Source: a virus. From it: a stretch of DNA of 5,429 bases. Below, in pieces: positions 1 through 5,429 of this stretch. The number at the start of each line of letters is the position of its first letter. Positions within the stretch are counted from its first letter, which is position 1. The DNA lies in IMG/VR virus record IMGVR_UViG_3300009391_000094, positions 1-5,429 of that record; one strand, 5' to 3'. The translations under genes were made by a program, and so were the position numbers. The notes under the pieces are model-generated. The model saw only the letters and a list, made by a program, of their open reading frames with translations. It was not told where the DNA came from and searched no databases.

Positions 1-127
1 AAATATTTTTACTAGTAAATCTTTAGATATATATACAGAAACATTTATTGTAAATAAAATAGCATTAGCTTCTTTTAGTTTAAGGATACATGAACAAAAT
101 TCAGCTTATTGTATTTATGGTGGTCAA
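1..127. repeat. Terminal overlap copy 1 (circularisation signature)
   Basis: Base-by-base identical to 5303-5429. It lies inside an open reading frame that continues seamlessly across the junction. Confidence 0.97.
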
Positions 128-940
128 GGTGTGGGAGGTATAAGTTCAAGTTCTTCAAGCAAATTTACTCCTATTAATTGGACTATATATGAACATATGA
201 TACCACAATCAGATTCTTCTACTATATCTGTAAATATATCATCAGATGCAGGTGTATTAGATGGAAATTTTAATCCTGACGATACTGAACCTATAATGTT
301 ACCGCCACCATTTTTTCCTGATATAAATTTAAAAGAAAGAACTAATTCTGACGGAAGTATATCAAAATATTTTGATGGTACTATTGATGATTATATGGGT
401 AATGTTGCTGATAATAATACTTATTCTGATGTCGAAACATATTTACAAACAGGTACAAACACAACTTCTTTAACTGATACAGGTACGGGAACTTTAACAG
501 TAGGAGATTTTAACGTAGATGGTTTACCATATCCAGAAGTTGGTACATCTGCTCCAACTGATGTTTTAACAGGTATAGGAGGTATAACAGGATTATTACA
601 AGGAATAACAAATTGGATTGCAAATTTATTAAAAACTTTAACAAATATATTTGTAATACCTACAGATTTAGCATTAAATTTTGATAGTTTACGTCTTGTT
701 GATTTTAGAAATAAATTTCCTTTTAGTATACCTTGGGATTTATACAATGCTATAAAATCATTTGCAAATTCTCCATCAACACCTAATTTAGCTATTGATT
801 TAGATACTCAATATTTTTCAGTATATCAGCCTATTGATTTATCAAGTATTAGTTTACCAATAGCATTTGCAAGATATACATCAGTTGTATTTTTTATAAT
901 ATTCTTAATTTCAAAAACAAGAGATTTTATAAAATGGTAG
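2..940 (+). CDS. C-terminal part of the same pIII-like protein (2-127 duplicates 5304-5429; unique part is 128-940)
   Basis: The frame is open from base 2 and in phase with 4782-5429 (648 nt = 216 codons, next codon at 128). Gly/Ser/Thr-rich linkers are present (GGQGVGGISSSSSSK; TGTNTTSLTDTGTGTLT). The C-terminal hydrophobic anchor YTSVVFFIIFLIS is followed by basic KTRDFIKW. The GTG at 131 used by the ORF track is an internal codon. Confidence 0.65.
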   Translation, partial: NIFTSKSLDIYTETFIVNKIALASFSLRIHEQNSAYCIYGGQGVGGISSSSSSKFTPINWTIYEHMIPQSDSSTISVNISSDAGVLDGNFNPDDTEPIMLPPPFFPDINLKERTNSDGSISKYFDGTIDDYMGNVADNNTYSDVETYLQTGTNTTSLTDTGTGTLTVGDFNVDGLPYPEVGTSAPTDVLTGIGGITGLLQGITNWIANLLKTLTNIFVIPTDLALNFDSLRLVDFRNKFPFSIPWDLYNAIKSFANSPSTPNLAIDLDTQYFSVYQPIDLSSISLPIAFARYTSVVFFIIFLISKTRDFIKW

Positions 941-949
941 GAGGTTAAT

Positions 950-1207
950 ATGTTAATTAGTGGTTTATTCTTTGTTATAAATAAAGTAATAGAATTAGTT
1001 GGTTCTGTAATTTCTATATTGTATAATCTACTTCCAACTTCACCTTTTAGGATTATAGAAAATTCTCAGTTTTCGGATCTAATTTCTCAGATAAATTATT
1101 TCTTGCCAATTTATGAATTTGTTTCAATAATGGAAACCTGGCTTGTGTCTGTTGGAATATTTTATTTATACAGCATTTTTGCAAGATGGATAAAAGCAAT
1201 TGAATAG
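950..1207 (+). CDS. Small hydrophobic membrane protein, pVI-like minor coat candidate (85 aa)
   Basis: GGAGG at 940-944 overlaps the upstream TAG stop. Hydrophobic segments are LISGLFFVINKVIELVGSVISILYNLL and WLVSVGIFYLYSIFARWI. It lies between the pIII-like gene and the pI-like gene, as gVI does in Ff. Confidence 0.5.
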   Translation: MLISGLFFVINKVIELVGSVISILYNLLPTSPFRIIENSQFSDLISQINYFLPIYEFVSIMETWLVSVGIFYLYSIFARWIKAIE

Positions 1208-1218
1208 GAGGTATTTAT

Positions 1219-1878
1219 ATGATTTGGTTATATAGTGGTACACCTGGTAGTGGTAAGAGTTATCATGCAGTTTATAAAATTTATTATAGATTGAAACAAA
1301 AAAAATTTAATAGAGTAATTGCAAATTTTGAATTAAATTTCCCTGGTGATTTAGATAAAAATTTAACATATTGGGATAATTCCGAAGTTACCATTGATAA
1401 ATTAATTGAATTTGATAAAAAAAATCATGTTTCAATGATAGAGGGCCAAACTTTGGTTGTATTAGATGAAGCACAAATTCTTTTTAATTGCAGAGATTGG
1501 GGAACAAATTCTAAGCTTAGAATGTCTTGGATAAAGTTTTTTAGTCAGCATAGAAAATATCATTTCAATTTTATTTTAATTTGTCAATTTGATAAAATGA
1601 TTGATAAACAAATACGTTCTTTGGTCGAGTATGAAGTTTCACATATGAAAATGAATAATTTTTTTTGGTTTTTACCATTTTCATATTTTCTATGTATAGA
1701 AAGATGGTATGGCCAACGTATGAAAATATCGCATGAGATAATACGTTATACCAAGAAAATATCAAATTTTTATAATTCTTATAAGACATTTGATGATAAA
1801 AAAATTGATGATAAAACAAGCGAATTGGAGCAGAGGAGCGATAGCGAGGAATGCTCTAATTCGCTTGTTTCTATTTAA
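1219..1878 (+). CDS. Zot / pI-type P-loop NTPase, filamentous-phage assembly ATPase (219 aa)
   Basis: AGGAGG at 1206-1211. The N-terminal MIWLYSGTPGSGKSYHAV carries a Walker A motif (GxxGSGKS) at the extreme N-terminus, as in the Zot family. Walker B-like TLVVLDEAQ is present. A hydrophobic stretch FFWFLPFSYFLCI follows the NTPase core. Confidence 0.88.
   Translation: MIWLYSGTPGSGKSYHAVYKIYYRLKQKKFNRVIANFELNFPGDLDKNLTYWDNSEVTIDKLIEFDKKNHVSMIEGQTLVVLDEAQILFNCRDWGTNSKLRMSWIKFFSQHRKYHFNFILICQFDKMIDKQIRSLVEYEVSHMKMNNFFWFLPFSYFLCIERWYGQRMKISHEIIRYTKKISNFYNSYKTFDDKKIDDKTSELEQRSDSEECSNSLVSI
1814..1870 (+). other. Long hairpin (19-bp stem, 19-nt loop) inside the 3' end of the ATPase gene; candidate ssoA-like minus-strand origin, packaging signal or terminator
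   Basis: 1814-1832 pairs with 1852-1870 (18 Watson-Crick pairs plus one G-T at 1827/1857). The loop 1833-1851 is gaggagcgatagcgaggaa and contains TAGCGA (1842-1847) and a 17-nt perfect mirror repeat (1834-1850). This is the most GC-rich patch of the gene. T-rich sequence follows. Confidence 0.6.
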
Positions 1879-1919
1879 AATTATTTATAAAAATATTTAT
1901 AAAATATTAAAAAAACCTC

Positions 1920-1948
1920 TTGACACCTAGACGTCTATATGTTATAAT
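1920..1948 (+). promoter_or_regulatory. Consensus sigma-70/sigma-A promoter with extended -10 and an operator-like palindrome in the spacer
   Basis: TTGACA (1920-1925), a 17-nt spacer, then TATAAT (1943-1948), with TG at 1940-1941 (TGnTATAAT). An AT-rich tandem TATTTATAAAA repeat lies upstream (1882-1904). The 10-bp perfect palindrome TAGACGTCTA is at 1928-1937. Confidence 0.75.
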
Positions 1949-1983
1949 AAGTTATAAATAAAAAACACCTGGAGGTAATAAAA

Positions 1984-2175
1984 ATGTTAGATTTTTATGA
2001 AAGTATTTTAGATAATGTTAATGAATTTATTTATGAAATTAGAAAAGAAAATGATAAAACTATGAAAGCTATAATTGCAATAAAAGGTAAGCAATATGTT
2101 AATGAATGTTTATTTAAAAATGAAATTACGTTAGAACAACATACAGAATTAAGAAATTTAATTACTAATAGATAA
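1984..2175 (+). CDS. Hypothetical small protein (63 aa), no recognisable motif
   Basis: GGAGG at 1971-1975, 8 nt before the ATG. It is the first gene downstream of the consensus promoter. Confidence 0.7.
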   Translation: MLDFYESILDNVNEFIYEIRKENDKTMKAIIAIKGKQYVNECLFKNEITLEQHTELRNLITNR

Positions 2176-2207
2176 AACATAAATTTTAATATATAGGAGG
2201 TTTTAAA

Positions 2208-2414
2208 ATGTATGATAATTATATGCAAATTGAAATTAATGAAACTCTATTAAATTGCAAAACAAGTTATGATAATATTTTAGAAATGAAAGTTTTTAAT
2301 AATCATTTGTTTATAAAAGATATTAATGATTGGTCGACAAATATAGAAATTAATGAAAAAGTAGTAGTTACAGTAAATTTCTATAATTATGATGAAGAAG
2401 ATTATAATTATTAA
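2208..2414 (+). CDS. Hypothetical small protein (68 aa) with an acidic Tyr-rich C-terminus, no recognisable motif
   Basis: AGGAGG at 2195-2200, 7 nt before the ATG. It is in the same operon as 1984-2175. Confidence 0.7.
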   Translation: MYDNYMQIEINETLLNCKTSYDNILEMKVFNNHLFIKDINDWSTNIEINEKVVVTVNFYNYDEEDYNY

Positions 2415-2482
2415 ATTTATCAAATAAAACAATTAATTTAATGGTTTGCGGTAAACCATAAAACCGCTTAGGAGGCTAATAT

Positions 2483-2677
2483 ATGGAAAAATCTAAATTT
2501 ACACTACGTGTTGATAATGAAATACTTAAAGATATGAAAATATTCGCTATACGTCAAAATATGCCCTTAAATGAAATGTTAATACAATGTTATGATATGT
2601 ATAAAAAAAAATATGAGGCTATACAAAATGGTGACATTTTACCAAGTGTTGAAGAATTGGAGGTTGACGACTTTTAA
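2483..2677 (+). CDS. Ribbon-helix-helix (CopG/Arc/MetJ-like) DNA-binding protein (64 aa)
   Basis: AGGAGG at 2470-2475. The N-terminal KFTLRVDNEILKDMKIFAIRQNMPLNEMLIQCY fits a beta-strand / helix / helix RHH layout. It sits upstream of a pMV158-type rep, as copG does. Confidence 0.65.
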   Translation: MEKSKFTLRVDNEILKDMKIFAIRQNMPLNEMLIQCYDMYKKKYEAIQNGDILPSVEELEVDDF

Positions 2678-2810
2678 CCCTAAAAAAAAATAAAAAATCG
2701 TAAGACTATTGGAACCGATAAAACCCGCAGACGTACCGAAGTACTTTTGGAACGCGTAACTTAAAAAAAAGGTAAATAACTCTAACTTAACAAAAAAATT
2801 GAAATTTTGA

Positions 2811-2825
2811 GCGAGCTAGGCTCGC
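2811..2825 (+). other. GC-rich hairpin GCGAGC-tag-GCTCGC in the origin region
   Basis: A perfect 6-bp GC-rich stem with a 3-nt loop, about 40 bp upstream of the nick hairpin. No adjacent T-run on the + strand, so it is not a canonical terminator. Confidence 0.5.
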
Positions 2826-2864
2826 AAATGATGTATTTTTTAAAAAGGTTTTTAAATTTTTTTG

Positions 2865-2890
2865 TGGGGGGGAACTACGACACCCCCCCA
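2865..2890 (+). promoter_or_regulatory. Predicted double-strand origin (dso) nick hairpin of the pMV158 type
   Basis: T-G7 (2865-2872) pairs with C7-A (2883-2890). The 10-nt loop aACTACGACa resembles the remembered pMV158-family nick sequence TACTACG/AC followed by a C-run. The predicted nick is between G2879 and A2880 on the + strand. Confidence 0.7.
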
Positions 2891-2892
2891 TG

Positions 2893-2913
2893 TGTTCAGT
2901 GTTCACTGTTCAT
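2893..2913 (+). repeat. Three tandem 7-bp direct repeats TGTTCAN (candidate Rep-binding iterons)
   Basis: TGTTCAG (2893-2899), TGTTCAC (2900-2906) and TGTTCAT (2907-2913), starting 3 nt after the nick hairpin. Confidence 0.7.
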
Positions 2914-2977
2914 TGAATTGATTATTTTGGGTAATTAAAAACAGTAAATATTAAGAACTGTGAGGTAATTATATTAA

Positions 2978-3595
2978 ATGTCTGATAAAAAAGCAACAAC
3001 TAGAACTAGGAATTTTGCTACAGTAGTTTACTTGGATAGTGCTCCATCAGATTGGCAAGAAATATTACAGTCATTTTGTGTTCAATCTTTTATTTCTCCT
3101 TATCATGATAAAGATTTAAACCCTACTGGAGAGGTTAAAAAGTCTCATTATCATGTAATGATGATGTATGATACTGTTAAAACTATTGAACAGGCAACTG
3201 AAAATTTTAAAAAAATTGGTGGAGTTGGATGTGAAATAATAAATTCTACTAGAGGTTATGCAAGATATTTATGTCATTTGGACAACCCAGAAAAACAACA
3301 ATATTCTCAAGTTGATGTAAAATCTATTTGTGGTGCTGATTATGTTGGTATTATAGGTTTAGTGACAGATAAATACATAATAATGGGAGAAATGCAGGAC
3401 TTTTGTGAAAAATATAATGTAGTATCATTTTATTTACTTTGTAATTATGCTAGGAAAAATCGTTCTGATTGGTATAGGTCACTTTGTGATAATTCATCTT
3501 TTTATATGAAAGAGTATTTAAAATCTAAATTATGGTCACAAGATAGTAAAAATAATCAAATAATTGATTTAGAAACTGGCGAGGTTATAGGGTAG
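2978..3595 (+). CDS. repB: Rolling-circle replication initiator, HUH endonuclease of the pMV158 RepB (Rep_2) family (205 aa)
   Basis: GAGG at 2962-2965. By eye it aligns with RepB of pMV158: RNFATVVYLDSAPSDW vs RYFTFLLYPESIPSDW; ISPYHDKD vs ISPLHDKD (metal ligands); SHYHVMM vs AHYHVLY (HUH, His57/His59, codon 3146-3148 = His57); GYARYLCH vs MYLYLTH (catalytic Tyr candidate Tyr97, codon 3266-3268). Confidence 0.88.
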   Translation: MSDKKATTRTRNFATVVYLDSAPSDWQEILQSFCVQSFISPYHDKDLNPTGEVKKSHYHVMMMYDTVKTIEQATENFKKIGGVGCEIINSTRGYARYLCHLDNPEKQQYSQVDVKSICGADYVGIIGLVTDKYIIMGEMQDFCEKYNVVSFYLLCNYARKNRSDWYRSLCDNSSFYMKEYLKSKLWSQDSKNNQIIDLETGEVIG

Positions 3596-3613
3596 TTAAT
3601 ACTACCCTTTTTT
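3589..3613 (+). terminator. Intrinsic terminator for rep; the hairpin contains the stop codons of both convergent genes
   Basis: AGGGTAGT (3589-3596) pairs with ACTACCCT (3601-3608) around the loop taat, followed by T5 (3609-3613). The rep TAG is at 3593-3595 and the minus-strand gene stop is at 3602-3604. Confidence 0.7.
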
Positions 3614-3796
3614 GATATCATCAATGTCGATTTTTAAAATTTTAAGCATGTTTAAAAAAACATCAAAATTTTCAAGATGTTTTCCATTTATCCATCTACT
3701 AACAGTATTTACATTAATATTTAGCTTTTCTGCAAGCTCTTTAACTGTCAATTCGTTTTCCAACATAGCAATTTTAATTTTAATATGATTAATCAT
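3602..3796 (-). CDS. XRE / Cro-CI-type helix-turn-helix transcriptional regulator (64 aa)
   Basis: LTVKELAEKLNINVNTVSRWINGK is a classic HTH_3 motif. I place the start at ATG 3796-3794, because AAGGAG (3810-3805) lies 8 nt upstream of it. The GTG at 3805 used by the ORF track overlaps that Shine-Dalgarno. Confidence 0.85.
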   Translation of the reverse strand: MINHIKIKIAMLENELTVKELAEKLNINVNTVSRWINGKHLENFDVFLNMLKILKIDIDDIKKG

Positions 3797-3817
3797 ATTA
3801 TTCACTCCTTTAATTTA

Positions 3818-3865
3818 ATTATACCCCATTTTTACATATTATATGTCAAAATGTATATTAGTAAA
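3818..3865 (-). promoter_or_regulatory. Candidate promoter(s) for the HTH regulator gene
   Basis: On the minus strand, TATAAT (3843-3838) has TTTACT (3865-3860) 16 nt upstream. Alternatively, TTGACA (3849-3844) pairs with TATAAT (3823-3818) at an over-long 20-nt spacing. Both overlap the palindrome ACATAT-T-ATATGT (3834-3846). Confidence 0.35.
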
Positions 3866-3880
3866 TAAAAATGTTTAAAA

Positions 3881-3918
3881 CAATACATAAATGTATTGAC
3901 ATATACATTTATGTATTG
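3881..3918. promoter_or_regulatory. Two operator-like palindromes sharing the half-site ATGTATTG
   Basis: CAATACAT-aa-ATGTATTG (3881-3898, perfect 8-bp arms) and ATATACAT-tt-ATGTATTG (3901-3918, 6 of 8 symmetric). Their centres are 20 bp apart. They cover the -35 and the spacer of the structural-operon promoter. Confidence 0.6.
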
Positions 3919-3924
3919 TATAAT
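3896..3924 (+). promoter_or_regulatory. Consensus promoter of the structural (virion) operon
   Basis: TTGACA (3896-3901), a 17-nt spacer, then TATAAT (3919-3924), about 30 nt upstream of the ATG at 3954. Confidence 0.75.
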
Positions 3925-3953
3925 AAAGAAAATATATTTTATAGGAGGTAATT

Positions 3954-4208
3954 ATGCGATTTGAAGAGAAAAAAATTATAACAGGCATAACACGAAAAGT
4001 GTCTAAAAAAACTAATAAAGAGTATACTATGGCAAATTTCCTAAATGATGATGGTACTTCTTTTTCAAGTTTAGTTGCTGATGGAGTTTTAATACCACAA
4101 GACATTAAACAATTATCACAAGTAAAAGTAATGTTTGAAGTAACTTTTTATAATGGTAATATTAACGGTCTTAGAACAGTTAATTTAGAGCTTTTAAAGA
4201 CGGCTTAA
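3954..4208 (+). CDS. Small beta-rich protein (84 aa), candidate pV-like ssDNA-binding protein
   Basis: AGGAGG at 3943-3948. Its size is close to Ff gVp (87 aa). It alternates hydrophobic and basic residues (ITGITRKVSKKTNKEYTMANF; VKVMFEVTFYNGNINGLRTVNLELL). It is the first gene of the structural operon, immediately before the tiny membrane proteins and the coat gene. The function call rests on position and size only. Confidence 0.45.
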   Translation: MRFEEKKIITGITRKVSKKTNKEYTMANFLNDDGTSFSSLVADGVLIPQDIKQLSQVKVMFEVTFYNGNINGLRTVNLELLKTA

Positions 4209-4211
4209 AAA

Positions 4212-4391
4212 ATGGAAACTTTAATAGACTATACATCATCATTTGCAGAAGTTAATAATTTGTTAGGTCAATTAATAACTTTACAAGCAAAATCAAATGT
4301 ATATTCTGAATGGATATTTGGTATAGAAGTTGCAATTTTCATTATTTCTATAGTTTTAATATTTGCAATATTCTTCTCCAATACAAGGTGA
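4212..4391 (+). CDS. Tiny membrane protein (59 aa), pVII/pIX-position minor coat candidate; not in the ORF track
   Basis: The ATG lies 4 nt after the upstream TAA, which suggests translational coupling; there is no clear SD. Product is METLIDYTSSFAEVNNLLGQLITLQAKSNVYSEWIFGIEVAIFIISIVLIFAIFFSNTR, with one C-terminal transmembrane segment. It ends at TGA 4389-4391. Confidence 0.5.
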   Translation: METLIDYTSSFAEVNNLLGQLITLQAKSNVYSEWIFGIEVAIFIISIVLIFAIFFSNTR

Positions 4392-4395
4392 TTTT

Positions 4396-4545
4396 ATGGA
4401 TTTACAAACAATTGAAACTTTAGCTAATTTCCATTGTCAACAAATTTTTAATGATGTTTCATTATCAATTTTAGAAATGTCATTTTTAATCGTAATTTTA
4501 TTATATTTTGCTTTGTTGGCTATGAGATTTCTTAAAGATATATAA
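4396..4545 (+). CDS. Tiny membrane protein (49 aa), pVII/pIX-position minor coat candidate
   Basis: AAGGTG at 4385-4390, 5 nt before ATG 4396. Product is MDLQTIETLANFHCQQIFNDVSLSILEMSFLIVILLYFALLAMRFLKDI, with one transmembrane segment and a basic tail. The ORF-track start at 4363 is a TTG with no SD and overlaps the previous gene. Confidence 0.55.
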   Translation: MDLQTIETLANFHCQQIFNDVSLSILEMSFLIVILLYFALLAMRFLKDI

Positions 4546-4571
4546 AAATTAAAATTTTTGGAGGTATTTAT

Positions 4572-4724
4572 ATGGATACAAATGCAGTAGTAACTGCCAT
4601 CACAGGTCAAGCATCAAGTTTAACATCAGACGCAGCTCCAGTAATAGCAGCTGCAATTGGACTTAGTGCATTATTCTTCGGAGCTAAATTGCTTTGGAGA
4701 AAATTTAGAGGCATGGCTTCATAA
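4572..4724 (+). CDS. Major coat protein candidate, pVIII-like (50 aa); not in the ORF track
   Basis: GGAGG at 4560-4564, 7 nt before the ATG. Product is MDTNAVVTAITGQASSLTSDAAPVIAAAIGLSALFFGAKLLWRKFRGMAS. It has a polar and slightly acidic N-terminal part, an Ala/Gly-rich hydrophobic helix, and a basic C-terminus (K, R, K, R) suited to contacting DNA. A strong terminator follows. Confidence 0.75.
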   Translation: MDTNAVVTAITGQASSLTSDAAPVIAAAIGLSALFFGAKLLWRKFRGMAS

Positions 4725-4734
4725 AAGCCAAATT

Positions 4735-4762
4735 AAAAGAGGTGGCTTACACCTCTTTTTTT
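4735..4762 (+). terminator. Rho-independent terminator after the coat gene
   Basis: The stem AAAAGAGGTG (4735-4744) pairs with CACCTCTTTT (4750-4759) around the loop gctta. The T-run extends to 4762 (7 T after the GC core). Confidence 0.85.
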
Positions 4763-4781
4763 AATTTATAGGAGGTAATTT

Positions 4782-5429
4782 ATGTATAATAATAAATTTA
4801 TTTTAATTATCACAATTTTATTAATTATAAATTCAATAATAACACCTGTTTATGCTATTGATAATTCTTTTGCATCAGTTTTTGGAGGTAATGGTAAAGA
4901 GGCTCTAGCATTTATGACTGTAGTTACTGGTTTAGGATTAACTTTTGCTAGTCAATCAGATGCAGTTGCAGTTTATAACGAATTAAAAGAAACAGCTCCT
5001 TTAGTTATTCAAAATATGGTAGCTATAACAAAATCTACTTGGTTAGGTGCTTATAATACTGTTAGTAATGAATTAATTTCTGTAAAAAATTCTGTATATG
5101 ATTATTTATTAAGTAAGTTTGGAACTGTTACAAGTGGTTTAAATATATCACCGTCAACTAATATAAAAGGTAGTATTTTAGATGGTAATACTACTTCTTC
5201 ATTTGAAAATATTAGTACAGGAACATATTCACATTATAATAAATACGGTTCTATAAGAGCAACATTAACTAATTATAATGAAACACAATTAAAAATTACA
5301 TTAAATATTTTTACTAGTAAATCTTTAGATATATATACAGAAACATTTATTGTAAATAAAATAGCATTAGCTTCTTTTAGTTTAAGGATACATGAACAAA
5401 ATTCAGCTTATTGTATTTATGGTGGTCAA
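4782..5429 (+). CDS. N-terminal 216 codons of a pIII-like minor coat / host-adsorption protein; continues at base 128 after circular closure, 486 aa in total
   Basis: GGAGG at 4771-4775, 6 nt before ATG 4782. The frame stays open to the window end, which is why the ORF track omits it. The N-terminus MYNNKFILIITILLIINSIITPVYA/IDNS looks like a Sec signal peptide with an AXA-like cleavage site. It sits directly after the coat gene and its terminator, as gIII does in Ff. Confidence 0.65.
   Translation, partial: MYNNKFILIITILLIINSIITPVYAIDNSFASVFGGNGKEALAFMTVVTGLGLTFASQSDAVAVYNELKETAPLVIQNMVAITKSTWLGAYNTVSNELISVKNSVYDYLLSKFGTVTSGLNISPSTNIKGSILDGNTTSSFENISTGTYSHYNKYGSIRATLTNYNETQLKITLNIFTSKSLDIYTETFIVNKIALASFSLRIHEQNSAYCIYGGQ
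5303..5429. repeat. Terminal overlap copy 2 (circularisation signature)
   Basis: Identical to 1-127. The length of 127 nt is typical of a de Bruijn assembler k-mer overlap. Confidence 0.97.

Follow-up and report, generated by a model that had tools for sequence, protein, structure and literature searches.

A putative XRE-type repressor and paired palindromic candidate operators at the virion promoter of a small inovirus-like phage

We analysed positions 1–5,429 of IMG/VR virus record IMGVR_UViG_3300009391_000094 (this whole stretch of 5,429 nucleotides is called the window below), the genome of a small inovirus-like phage, and found that a 64-amino-acid (aa) XRE-type helix-turn-helix (HTH) protein and two palindromes, O1 and O2, probably form a repressor-operator pair guarding the virion operon. 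The anatomy of the region, the statistical excess of its repeats and the covariation of its parts among related phages were observed directly. An earlier note, made by a model from the letters of the sequence, had read this region as a repressor-operator switch with autoregulation; the pair on the virion promoter is now supported by a cassette swap and by covariation of operators and HTH protein, and the autoregulation is not.

The divergent regulatory region

The features of the region, in window coordinates, are:
3589–3608, scored on the plus strand only: terminator-like hairpin AGGGTAGT-TAAT-ACTACCCT followed by a T-run (terminator scan)
3602–3796, minus strand: XRE/Cro-C1-type helix-turn-helix protein, putative repressor (open reading frame (ORF), Pfam, PHROG, PDB)
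3834–3846, no strand: third palindrome ACATAT-T-ATATGT over the regulator −10; present, a weak operator candidate
3838–3865, minus strand: candidate regulator promoter, −35 TTTACT (3865–3860), 16-nt spacer, −10 TATAAT (3843–3838), 10/12 in the promoter scan
3849–3858, plus strand: extra half-site AAATGTATAT, exact reverse complement of 3901–3910 (inverted-repeat search)
3880–3919, no strand: perfect 17-6-17 inverted repeat comprising O1 and O2, centred on the −35 region
3881–3898, no strand: candidate operator O1, CAATACAT-AA-ATGTATTG, a perfect 8-2-8 palindrome
3896–3924, plus strand: promoter of the virion/single-stranded DNA (ssDNA)-binding operon, TTGACA-17-TATAAT, 12/12 in the promoter scan
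3901–3918, no strand: candidate operator O2, atATACAT-TT-ATGTATtg, of which only the 6-2-6 core (3903–3916) is perfect

The HTH gene is the sole minus-strand gene of the genome and is divergent from the structural operon, as the earlier note had it. It reads 64 aa from an ATG (3796–3794) with the ribosome-binding site (RBS) AAGGAG (3810–3805) 8 nt upstream; initiation at an alternative GTG (3805) would lengthen it to 67 aa. Pfam HTH_3 (PF01381) matched at 35.9 bits (cutoff 23), residues 10–64 of the 67-aa translation covering profile positions 1–55 of 55, and HTH_26 at 32.8 bits (cutoff 22). PHROG matches were to transcriptional repressor and regulator families, and the PDB sequence matches, 3bs3 and 9k3w, are of the XRE/PbsX type. 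The HTH profile spans the whole 64 aa, with no S24 peptidase or C-terminal dimerisation domain of the lambda CI/LexA type, and relatives in this small family are about 62–65 aa long. The hairpin at 3589–3608 lies at the meeting point of the convergent rep and HTH genes, at the left edge of the swapped cassette described below; from its position, it would terminate the HTH transcript. A perfect 20-bp palindrome, TAATATGATTAATCATATTA, covers the HTH start codon (3781–3800) and is the second-longest perfect palindrome of the genome. By a rough estimate, a genome would contain a palindrome of this kind by chance with a probability of about 0.05; this one is not kept in the relatives L255, L258 or L003, and may represent a hairpin in the mRNA, a further binding site or a chance occurrence.

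Between the HTH gene and the next plus-strand gene (ATG at 3954) lie 157 bp counted from the ATG start, or 148 bp, the figure in the earlier note, counted from the GTG start. This compact gap holds a 12/12 promoter on the plus strand and a 10/12 promoter on the minus strand. The former, which the earlier note had rightly called perfect, consists of −35 TTGACA (3896–3901), a 17-nt spacer and −10 TATAAT (3919–3924); two such 12/12 promoters occur in the genome, against a mean of 0.04 in dinucleotide shuffles. O1 runs into the −35 hexamer, covering its first three bases, and O2 spans the promoter spacer, from the last −35 base to the base preceding the −10. The positions of the two palindromes, their common ATGTATTG (the right half of O2 too) and the 20 bp between their centres agree with the earlier description; the perfection of the second palindrome holds just for its core, the outer two positions being unpaired. 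The 17-6-17 repeat that O1 and O2 make up is the longest inverted repeat of the genome, and its 17-nt arm compares with longest arms of 12 (300 shuffles of the genome) and 14 (2,000 shuffles of the intergenic region). The 14-mer ATACATNNATGTAT occurs twice in the window, in O1 and O2 only, and no copy with up to two mismatches was found elsewhere in the window. Thus, several operator-like sites lie on the −35 and spacer of this promoter, unique in the genome and well above chance. The O1–O2 arrangement, searched as an exact pattern, had no match in viral contigs.

AAATGTWT-like motifs are phased at 20 bp through the region (starts 3849, 3869, 3889 and 3909), and the phased pattern search returned 8 matches, a count reached in 0 of 200 shuffles. 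Tandem Repeats Finder reported no tandem array in 3780–3960, this phasing being too degenerate for the tool. The phasing is specific to the window and not kept in relatives. Given this degeneracy and absence from relatives, a set of four operators is not claimed.

The 10/12 match of the candidate regulator promoter is not significant alone; AGTAAA and ATTATA stand at the same spacing in L255 and L258. About 30 bp separate the regulator and virion promoters, which stand back to back. The extra half-site AAATGTATAT falls inside the spacer of the regulator promoter, where it is the first member of the 20-bp phased series, and is not kept in L255 or L258. The third palindrome, which the earlier note had placed on this candidate promoter, is indeed there as a sequence feature. 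However, chance alone predicts about one palindrome with arms of at least 6 nt and a spacer of at most 2 nt for the intergenic region, and about 12 genome-wide, which puts it at chance level, and in L255 and L258 its right part (the −10 hexamer) is kept and its left half is not. Being neither significant nor conserved, it was downgraded as an autoregulatory operator, and the autoregulation that had been attached to it is unsupported.

Cassette exchange and covariation among relatives

Searches with the HTH protein yielded no relatives: a word-indexed protein search returned the self-match alone, and a scan of viral contigs gave a single, unrelated match (34%). Related genomes were therefore gathered via the assembly ATPase Zot and the 84-aa protein of the virion operon. 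The closest genome, L003 (Logan SRR15035647), is highly similar to the window in Zot (97%), p85 (92%), p84 (92%), p59 (88%), coat protein (78%) and Rep (77%), and its HTH protein is 45% identical, reading NLSVNTISKW where that of the window has NINVNTVSRW. DNA identity in sliding comparison was 95–98% at the rep end, about 55% over ~3590–~3920, and 98% from the −10 hexamer on. L003 keeps a perfect TTGACA-17-TATAAT in the equivalent position; in the 44-bp promoter/operator core only 20 of 44 positions are identical, 12 of them the promoter hexamers, and the sequence upstream is unrelated.

The converse was seen in L255/L256 and L258, whose virion proteins are 45–67% identical to those of the window, yet whose HTH proteins are 64% identical. 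Their recognition helices read NTVSRWLNGK and NTISRWINGK, against NTVSRWINGK in the window, and the core matches the window at 37/44 positions in L255 and 34/44 in L258. In L165/L259, with an HTH protein 56% identical, the core matches at 31/44 positions; it does so at 34/44 in L257 and 38/44 in L254, and L261 has the same operators. Repressor and operator region thus diverge together between the otherwise similar window and L003, and the reverse holds for L255 and L258.

An alignment of six regions showed TTGACA, the half-sites TATACA and TGTAT, and TATAAT to be invariant or nearly so, with the central 4 nt of the palindromes varying freely and with zero indels between O1 and O2. Constant half-sites, a variable centre and fixed spacing are the signature of a protein-DNA contact footprint. 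The TATACA...TGTAT half-sites are retained in L254, L257, L261 and L165, and those of O1 in L254, L255, L257 and L261; L165 and L259 keep O2 alone, as a 7-4-7 repeat. A virion promoter of the 12/12 type is kept in L003, L165, L254, L255, L258 and L261. Judged from these alignments, the operators go with the type of HTH protein, not with the relatedness of the remaining genome, and the comparison supports the HTH gene and operator zone as one exchangeable unit, resembling an immunity cassette.

The pattern was then followed in the wider family with a hidden Markov model built from six HTH proteins and run on all ORFs of about 250 Zot-related loci. Nearly all non-redundant XRE domains (69 of 76) were antisense to zot. 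Among 55 analysable divergent regions, 40 carried a plus-strand promoter of at least 10/12; in 14 the longest perfect inverted repeat reached a shuffle P ≤ 0.05 (2.75 expected), nine of these at P ≤ 0.01. The top repeat overlapped the promoter in 21 of the 40 promoter-bearing regions, against 13.4 expected. By inspection, many loci have a palindrome of their own in two or three copies, located on a near-consensus promoter or immediately past it, and XRE-palindrome modules occur beside different Rep types (RepB and Phage_CRI). These results suggest that the XRE-operator module is common in the clade and that its operator sequence diversifies. Double or triple promoter palindromes facing an antisense XRE gene, each with its own sequence, were noted in L089 (TAGCGATA..TCGCTA three times), L096 (TTACCGGATAA.TCCGGTAA), L214 (TATCAAAA..TTGATA three times), L222, L042 and L065.

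The controlled operon, the replication module and alternative readings

The remaining features on which the argument draws are:
1219–1878, plus strand: Zot/pI assembly ATPase (Pfam Zot, E 1.2e-15)
1920–1948, plus strand: second 12/12 promoter, TTGACA-17-TATAAT with TG before the −10 (promoter scan)
2978–3595, plus strand: RepB-type rolling-circle initiator, rep (Pfam Rep_OBD, E 2e-40; RepB_C, E 2.7e-12)
3954–4208, plus strand: first operon gene, 84-aa all-beta OB-fold protein, putatively ssDNA-binding, in gene V position (AlphaFold2)
4212–4391 and 4396–4545, plus strand: two small membrane-type proteins (ORFs, contig gene calls)
4572–4724, plus strand: candidate 50-aa major coat protein (PHROG 1859, size, position)
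4735–4759, scored on both strands: strong intrinsic terminator-like hairpin directly past the coat gene (terminator scan)

The first gene of the operon has the RBS AGGAGG at 3943–3948. Its 84-aa product gave no Pfam or PHROG match and nothing significant in a PDB sequence search; the AlphaFold2 model, built with 11 homologues, has a pLDDT of 92.4 and five beta strands. The best PDB folds are OB-folds, namely many ribosomal S12 chains together with the ssDNA binders RPA, Rim1 SSB, PriB and LEF-3, at TM scores of 0.5–0.68 with weak E-values near 1e-2. From modelled fold and gene position, the protein is a candidate gene-V-like ssDNA-binding protein. The coat candidate matched PHROG 1859, labelled 'major head protein' in the library, at E 6.6e-5. 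The Ff phages have a terminator after gene VIII, in a position equivalent to 4735–4759. Adsorption and assembly genes, including Zot/pI, lie downstream of this hairpin, which would set expression of the coat and OB-fold genes above theirs.

The first and last 127 bases of the window are identical (1–127 = 5303–5429), and the window is therefore a complete circle of 5,302 bp; the contig comes from JGI metagenome 3300007908, and its sequence is present also as a second record of 5,401 bp. In the ORF list all genes but the HTH gene lie on the plus strand, and several further small ORFs accompany zot, rep and the coat candidate. The Zot/pI ATPase, the 50-aa coat candidate, the small circle and the placement of nearly all genes on one strand are those of inovirus-like (Tubulavirales) genomes. 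Zot has 816 relatives, many on 5–6-kb contigs and others within genomes of Clostridia and other Bacillota, and because of this the window is assigned, from its sequence, to a small inovirus-like phage of Gram-positive anaerobes. Searches by blastn against phage and plasmid collections gave just short rep and zot matches and no close genome there.

Two small plasmids of cultured strains are related to the window in zot. One, pCBU3 (NZ_AP019719.1, 6,059 bp) of Clostridium butyricum, matched the zot region and has an annotated Zot-domain gene, with no antisense HTH gene in its annotation. In the other, pCd1_4 (NZ_CP037847.1, 6,830 bp) of Clostridioides difficile, the zot match falls in a stretch without a listed gene. 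Both are probably inovirus replicative forms filed as plasmids; since small circular Zot-type 'plasmids' are found in cultured strains, episomal carriage occurs in the group. The earlier note had described the genome as free of an integrase, and none is encoded according to the ORF list, Pfam and contig gene calls. For a XerCD dif-like site, the best match to the B. subtilis dif 28-mer was 20/28, within the shuffle range, which gives no evidence for integration in what is a narrow test. A tyrosine integrase adjoins the phage genes of L245 (3385–4326), whose Zot is 66% identical to that of the window, so integration modules do occur in the clade.

The plasmid-type rep module that the earlier note had also described is borne out by the Rep_OBD and RepB_C matches and by a pMV158-like nick sequence in a hairpin loop. 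The second 12/12 promoter (1920–1948) lies upstream of orf63, orf68, a ribbon-helix-helix (RHH)-like ORF and rep, and its spacer holds a 10-bp palindrome, TAGACGTCTA (1929–1938), unlike O1 and O2. In L003 (4996–5024) and L004 (771–799), the flanks are identical to the window and the spacer palindrome is instead ACATATG-TG-CATATGT, and the first gene past this promoter is strongly diverged; in sequence, therefore, 1920–1948 has the look of another promoter-operator cassette, swapped independently of the first. Between this promoter and rep lies a hairpin with G7 at 2866–2872, loop AACTACGACA and C7 at 2883–2889. In the loop, ACTACGAC (2874–2881) agrees by eye, without statistics, with 8/9 positions of the pMV158-family nick consensus TACTACGAC (PMC3387028). 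Three 7-bp direct repeats (TGTTCAG, TGTTCAC and TGTTCAT, 2893–2913) follow the hairpin, and 2865–2913 is a probable double-strand origin. The 64-aa ORF at 2483–2677 gave a weak Arc-like PHROG match (E 6.5e-4), with DUF6364 and HicB below threshold, and the ORF at 1984–2175 a weak ParD-like match (E 0.006); both may act on the rep promoter as CopG-like regulators. No RNA family, antisense or otherwise, was found in the window by Rfam.

From this map we infer binding, dimer-of-dimers cooperativity, repression and biological role as follows. HTH dimers would bind the two palindromic operators of 16–18 bp (consensus AATACA-N4-TGTATT), whose centres, 20 bp or about two helical turns apart, would place both sites on one face of the DNA; the conserved spacing only suggests cooperative binding. 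Joint occupancy would cover the −35 and the full spacer of this sigma-A/sigma-70 promoter and keep RNA polymerase off it. Since a 12/12 promoter can do without an activator, a site filling its spacer plausibly only represses. The operon of OB-fold gene-V-like protein, small membrane proteins and major coat protein would then be off, and the adsorption and assembly genes, fed by read-through, would be lowered as well. With OB-fold and coat proteins absent, new single strands would be reconverted to double strands. Replication appears to be wired separately, RepB having its own promoter and a pMV158-type origin, and with the virion operon repressed the element is therefore expected to be maintained as an episome that replicates by rolling circle like a plasmid. 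Carried as one cassette, repressor gene and operators would set immunity types among related phages.

Several observations weigh against this repressor-operator reading. O1 is degenerate in L258 and L165, the HTH protein has no sensor, oligomerisation or cleavage domain by Pfam and PDB, and the enrichment of perfect inverted repeats in the wider family is moderate and not universal. No HTH gene separates rep from the p84 homologue in L254, a contig of only 933 bp from SRR8925820: the rep stop leads straight into the promoter, on which two perfect ATACATATATGTAT operators stand at a 20-bp spacing (526–613). The gene may lie elsewhere in that genome; alternatively, L254 may lack a repressor and be controlled in trans, and a different factor could bind its operators. 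The homologue of the 84-aa protein in L254 is 80% identical to that of the window.

That the palindromes of the window serve another factor, a host regulator or a phage RHH-like protein, with the HTH protein regulating something else, is nonetheless improbable. L254 speaks for it, as do the further small candidate DNA binders (Arc-like at 2483–2677, weakly ParD-like at 1984–2175). Yet operator zone and HTH gene are replaced jointly, at sharp boundaries in conserved surroundings, and the operators follow HTH similarity rather than genome-wide similarity; the genome offers the HTH protein no operator-like copy elsewhere, and the distinct palindrome of the 1920–1948 promoter suits the other small proteins. 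Still less probable, to the point of being very unlikely, is that the 40-nt inverted repeat acts as an ssDNA hairpin, as packaging signal or complementary-strand origin, and not as double-stranded operators. The phage has an ssDNA genome, the plus strand would fold into a 17-bp stem (minimum free energy −21.5 kcal/mol, z = −4.8), and both roles are filled by hairpins in Ff phages. But L003 lacks the repeat here despite its 97% identical assembly ATPase and 78–92% identical virion proteins, and the same machinery should conserve a packaging signal; chiefly for this reason, the hairpin function was rejected. The single O2 of L165 and L259 argues in the same direction, and what is conserved is half-sites with a variable centre rather than stem length or stability. 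As the −35 falls largely within the loop and the −10 beyond the stem, the hairpin is no promoter mimic either.

A different question is whether repression by the HTH protein amounts to a switch. The silent carrier state able to switch to particle production that the earlier note proposed would fit the mechanism above, and steady throttling with superinfection immunity fits the data equally well. We give somewhat less than even weight to the HTH protein being a constitutive throttle and superinfection-immunity factor of a chronically producing phage, where a low, steady level of gene-V-like and coat protein would spare the host and incoming phages of the same immunity would be blocked. A bare 64-aa HTH protein with neither sensor nor S24 peptidase domain favours this, as does the lack of a recognisable antirepressor among the remaining ORFs by Pfam and PHROG. 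The cassette swap between near-identical phages is a signature of selection for immunity specificity (compare RstR, PMC11509585), and chronic production is, according to a passage in PMC10534721, the default lifestyle of filamentous phages. On the other side, two operators on the −35 and spacer of a consensus promoter suggest tight and not partial repression.

Going further, the repressor-operator cassette could be the sole gate between plasmid and virion lifestyles, with rep under a swappable cassette of its own and variants such as L254 being cheaters or satellites controlled in trans by a co-resident phage of matching immunity type; we regard this extension as doubtful. If true, a closed gate would leave a pMV158-type rolling-circle plasmid, an open gate would let single strands be captured and extruded as virions, and the phage would be built of two orthogonal plug-in control modules.

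Relation to known systems

To our knowledge, filamentous phages of Gram-positive anaerobes are known nearly only from metagenomes, and their regulation has been unstudied. The window offers a compact, testable regulatory map of one 64-aa protein, two 18-bp sites and one consensus promoter, for which the databases hold natural controls, namely a near-identical phage with another cassette and distant phages with the same operators. If confirmed, the pair would allow immunity typing of these phages, supply Clostridia and Bacillota with a compact orthogonal repressor and its operators, and explain why such elements are recorded as cryptic plasmids in cultured Clostridium.

An XRE repressor acting on a phage promoter is a textbook principle, with filamentous precedents in CTXphi RstR, SW1 FpsR and Pf4r. 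Lambdoid CI/Cro with OR and the small Cro proteins of 434 and P22 combine the XRE fold with palindromic operators over divergent promoters in immunity regions that swap as cassettes. The window shares the XRE HTH protein, the palindromes at divergent promoters and the swapping cassette with them. Unlike them, it has one HTH regulator and no second antagonist gene, and its first rightward gene encodes an OB-fold protein. In contrast to lambda CI, its HTH protein has no S24 peptidase domain and therefore no route to RecA-mediated induction.

The replicon resembles pMV158 (RepB, CopG, RNAII) in its RepB with Rep_OBD and RepB_C, the nick-like loop with adjoining direct repeats and the RHH-like gene upstream of rep. 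It differs in lying within a phage with Zot/pI, coat and adsorption genes and in having no antisense RNA family found by Rfam, and the XRE switch has no counterpart in pMV158.

Among filamentous phages, Pf4r (repressor C) of Pseudomonas phage Pf4 is a further precedent (PMC8402870); Pf4, however, is carried as an integrated prophage whose circuit includes an excisionase and an integrase, and host genes are among the targets of Pf4r; no such trait is evident in the window. FpsR of the Shewanella phage SW1 is a Cro/CI-like HTH protein without a protease domain, encoded opposite the main phage operon, as is the HTH protein of the window, and binds the promoter of that operon in electrophoretic mobility shift assays (PMC4762005). 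Unlike the window, with its back-to-back promoters about 30 bp apart, SW1 has a regulatory region of 621 bp with long overlapping 5' untranslated regions and a replication gene within the operon, and the promoter of fpsR itself is not bound by FpsR.

Of the known systems, RstR/ig-2 of CTXphi in Vibrio cholerae comes closest. RstR is encoded divergently from the main promoter, has three sites in the 138-bp ig-2 and confers allele-specific immunity (PMC11509585, PMC4762005); rstR and ig-2 diverge together between otherwise similar phages (PMC11509585; PMC4762005), and cooperative tetrameric complexes are attributed to Kimsey and Waldor 2004 in a passage of PMC4762005. Both systems have a small, divergent Cro/CI-type HTH protein without a cleavage domain and several sites in a compact region (138 bp in CTXphi, 157 bp in the window), and the HTH protein of the window is likened to RstR by general XRE fold and arrangement alone. 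The host of the window phage belongs to the Bacillota and that of CTXphi to the Proteobacteria, and the window has a pMV158-type replicon and no integration module. The wiring differs as well: control of the replication-gene promoter is a defining feature of the RstR/ig-2 kind, and in the window the replication initiator is not behind the controlled promoter, since rep follows 1920–1948 and the OB-fold and coat genes, with which the controlled operon begins, follow 3896–3924, although read-through around the circle from the virion promoter could still reach rep. By analogy, then, the window would work like RstR/ig-2, with a promoter wiring that places rep outside the operon under control.

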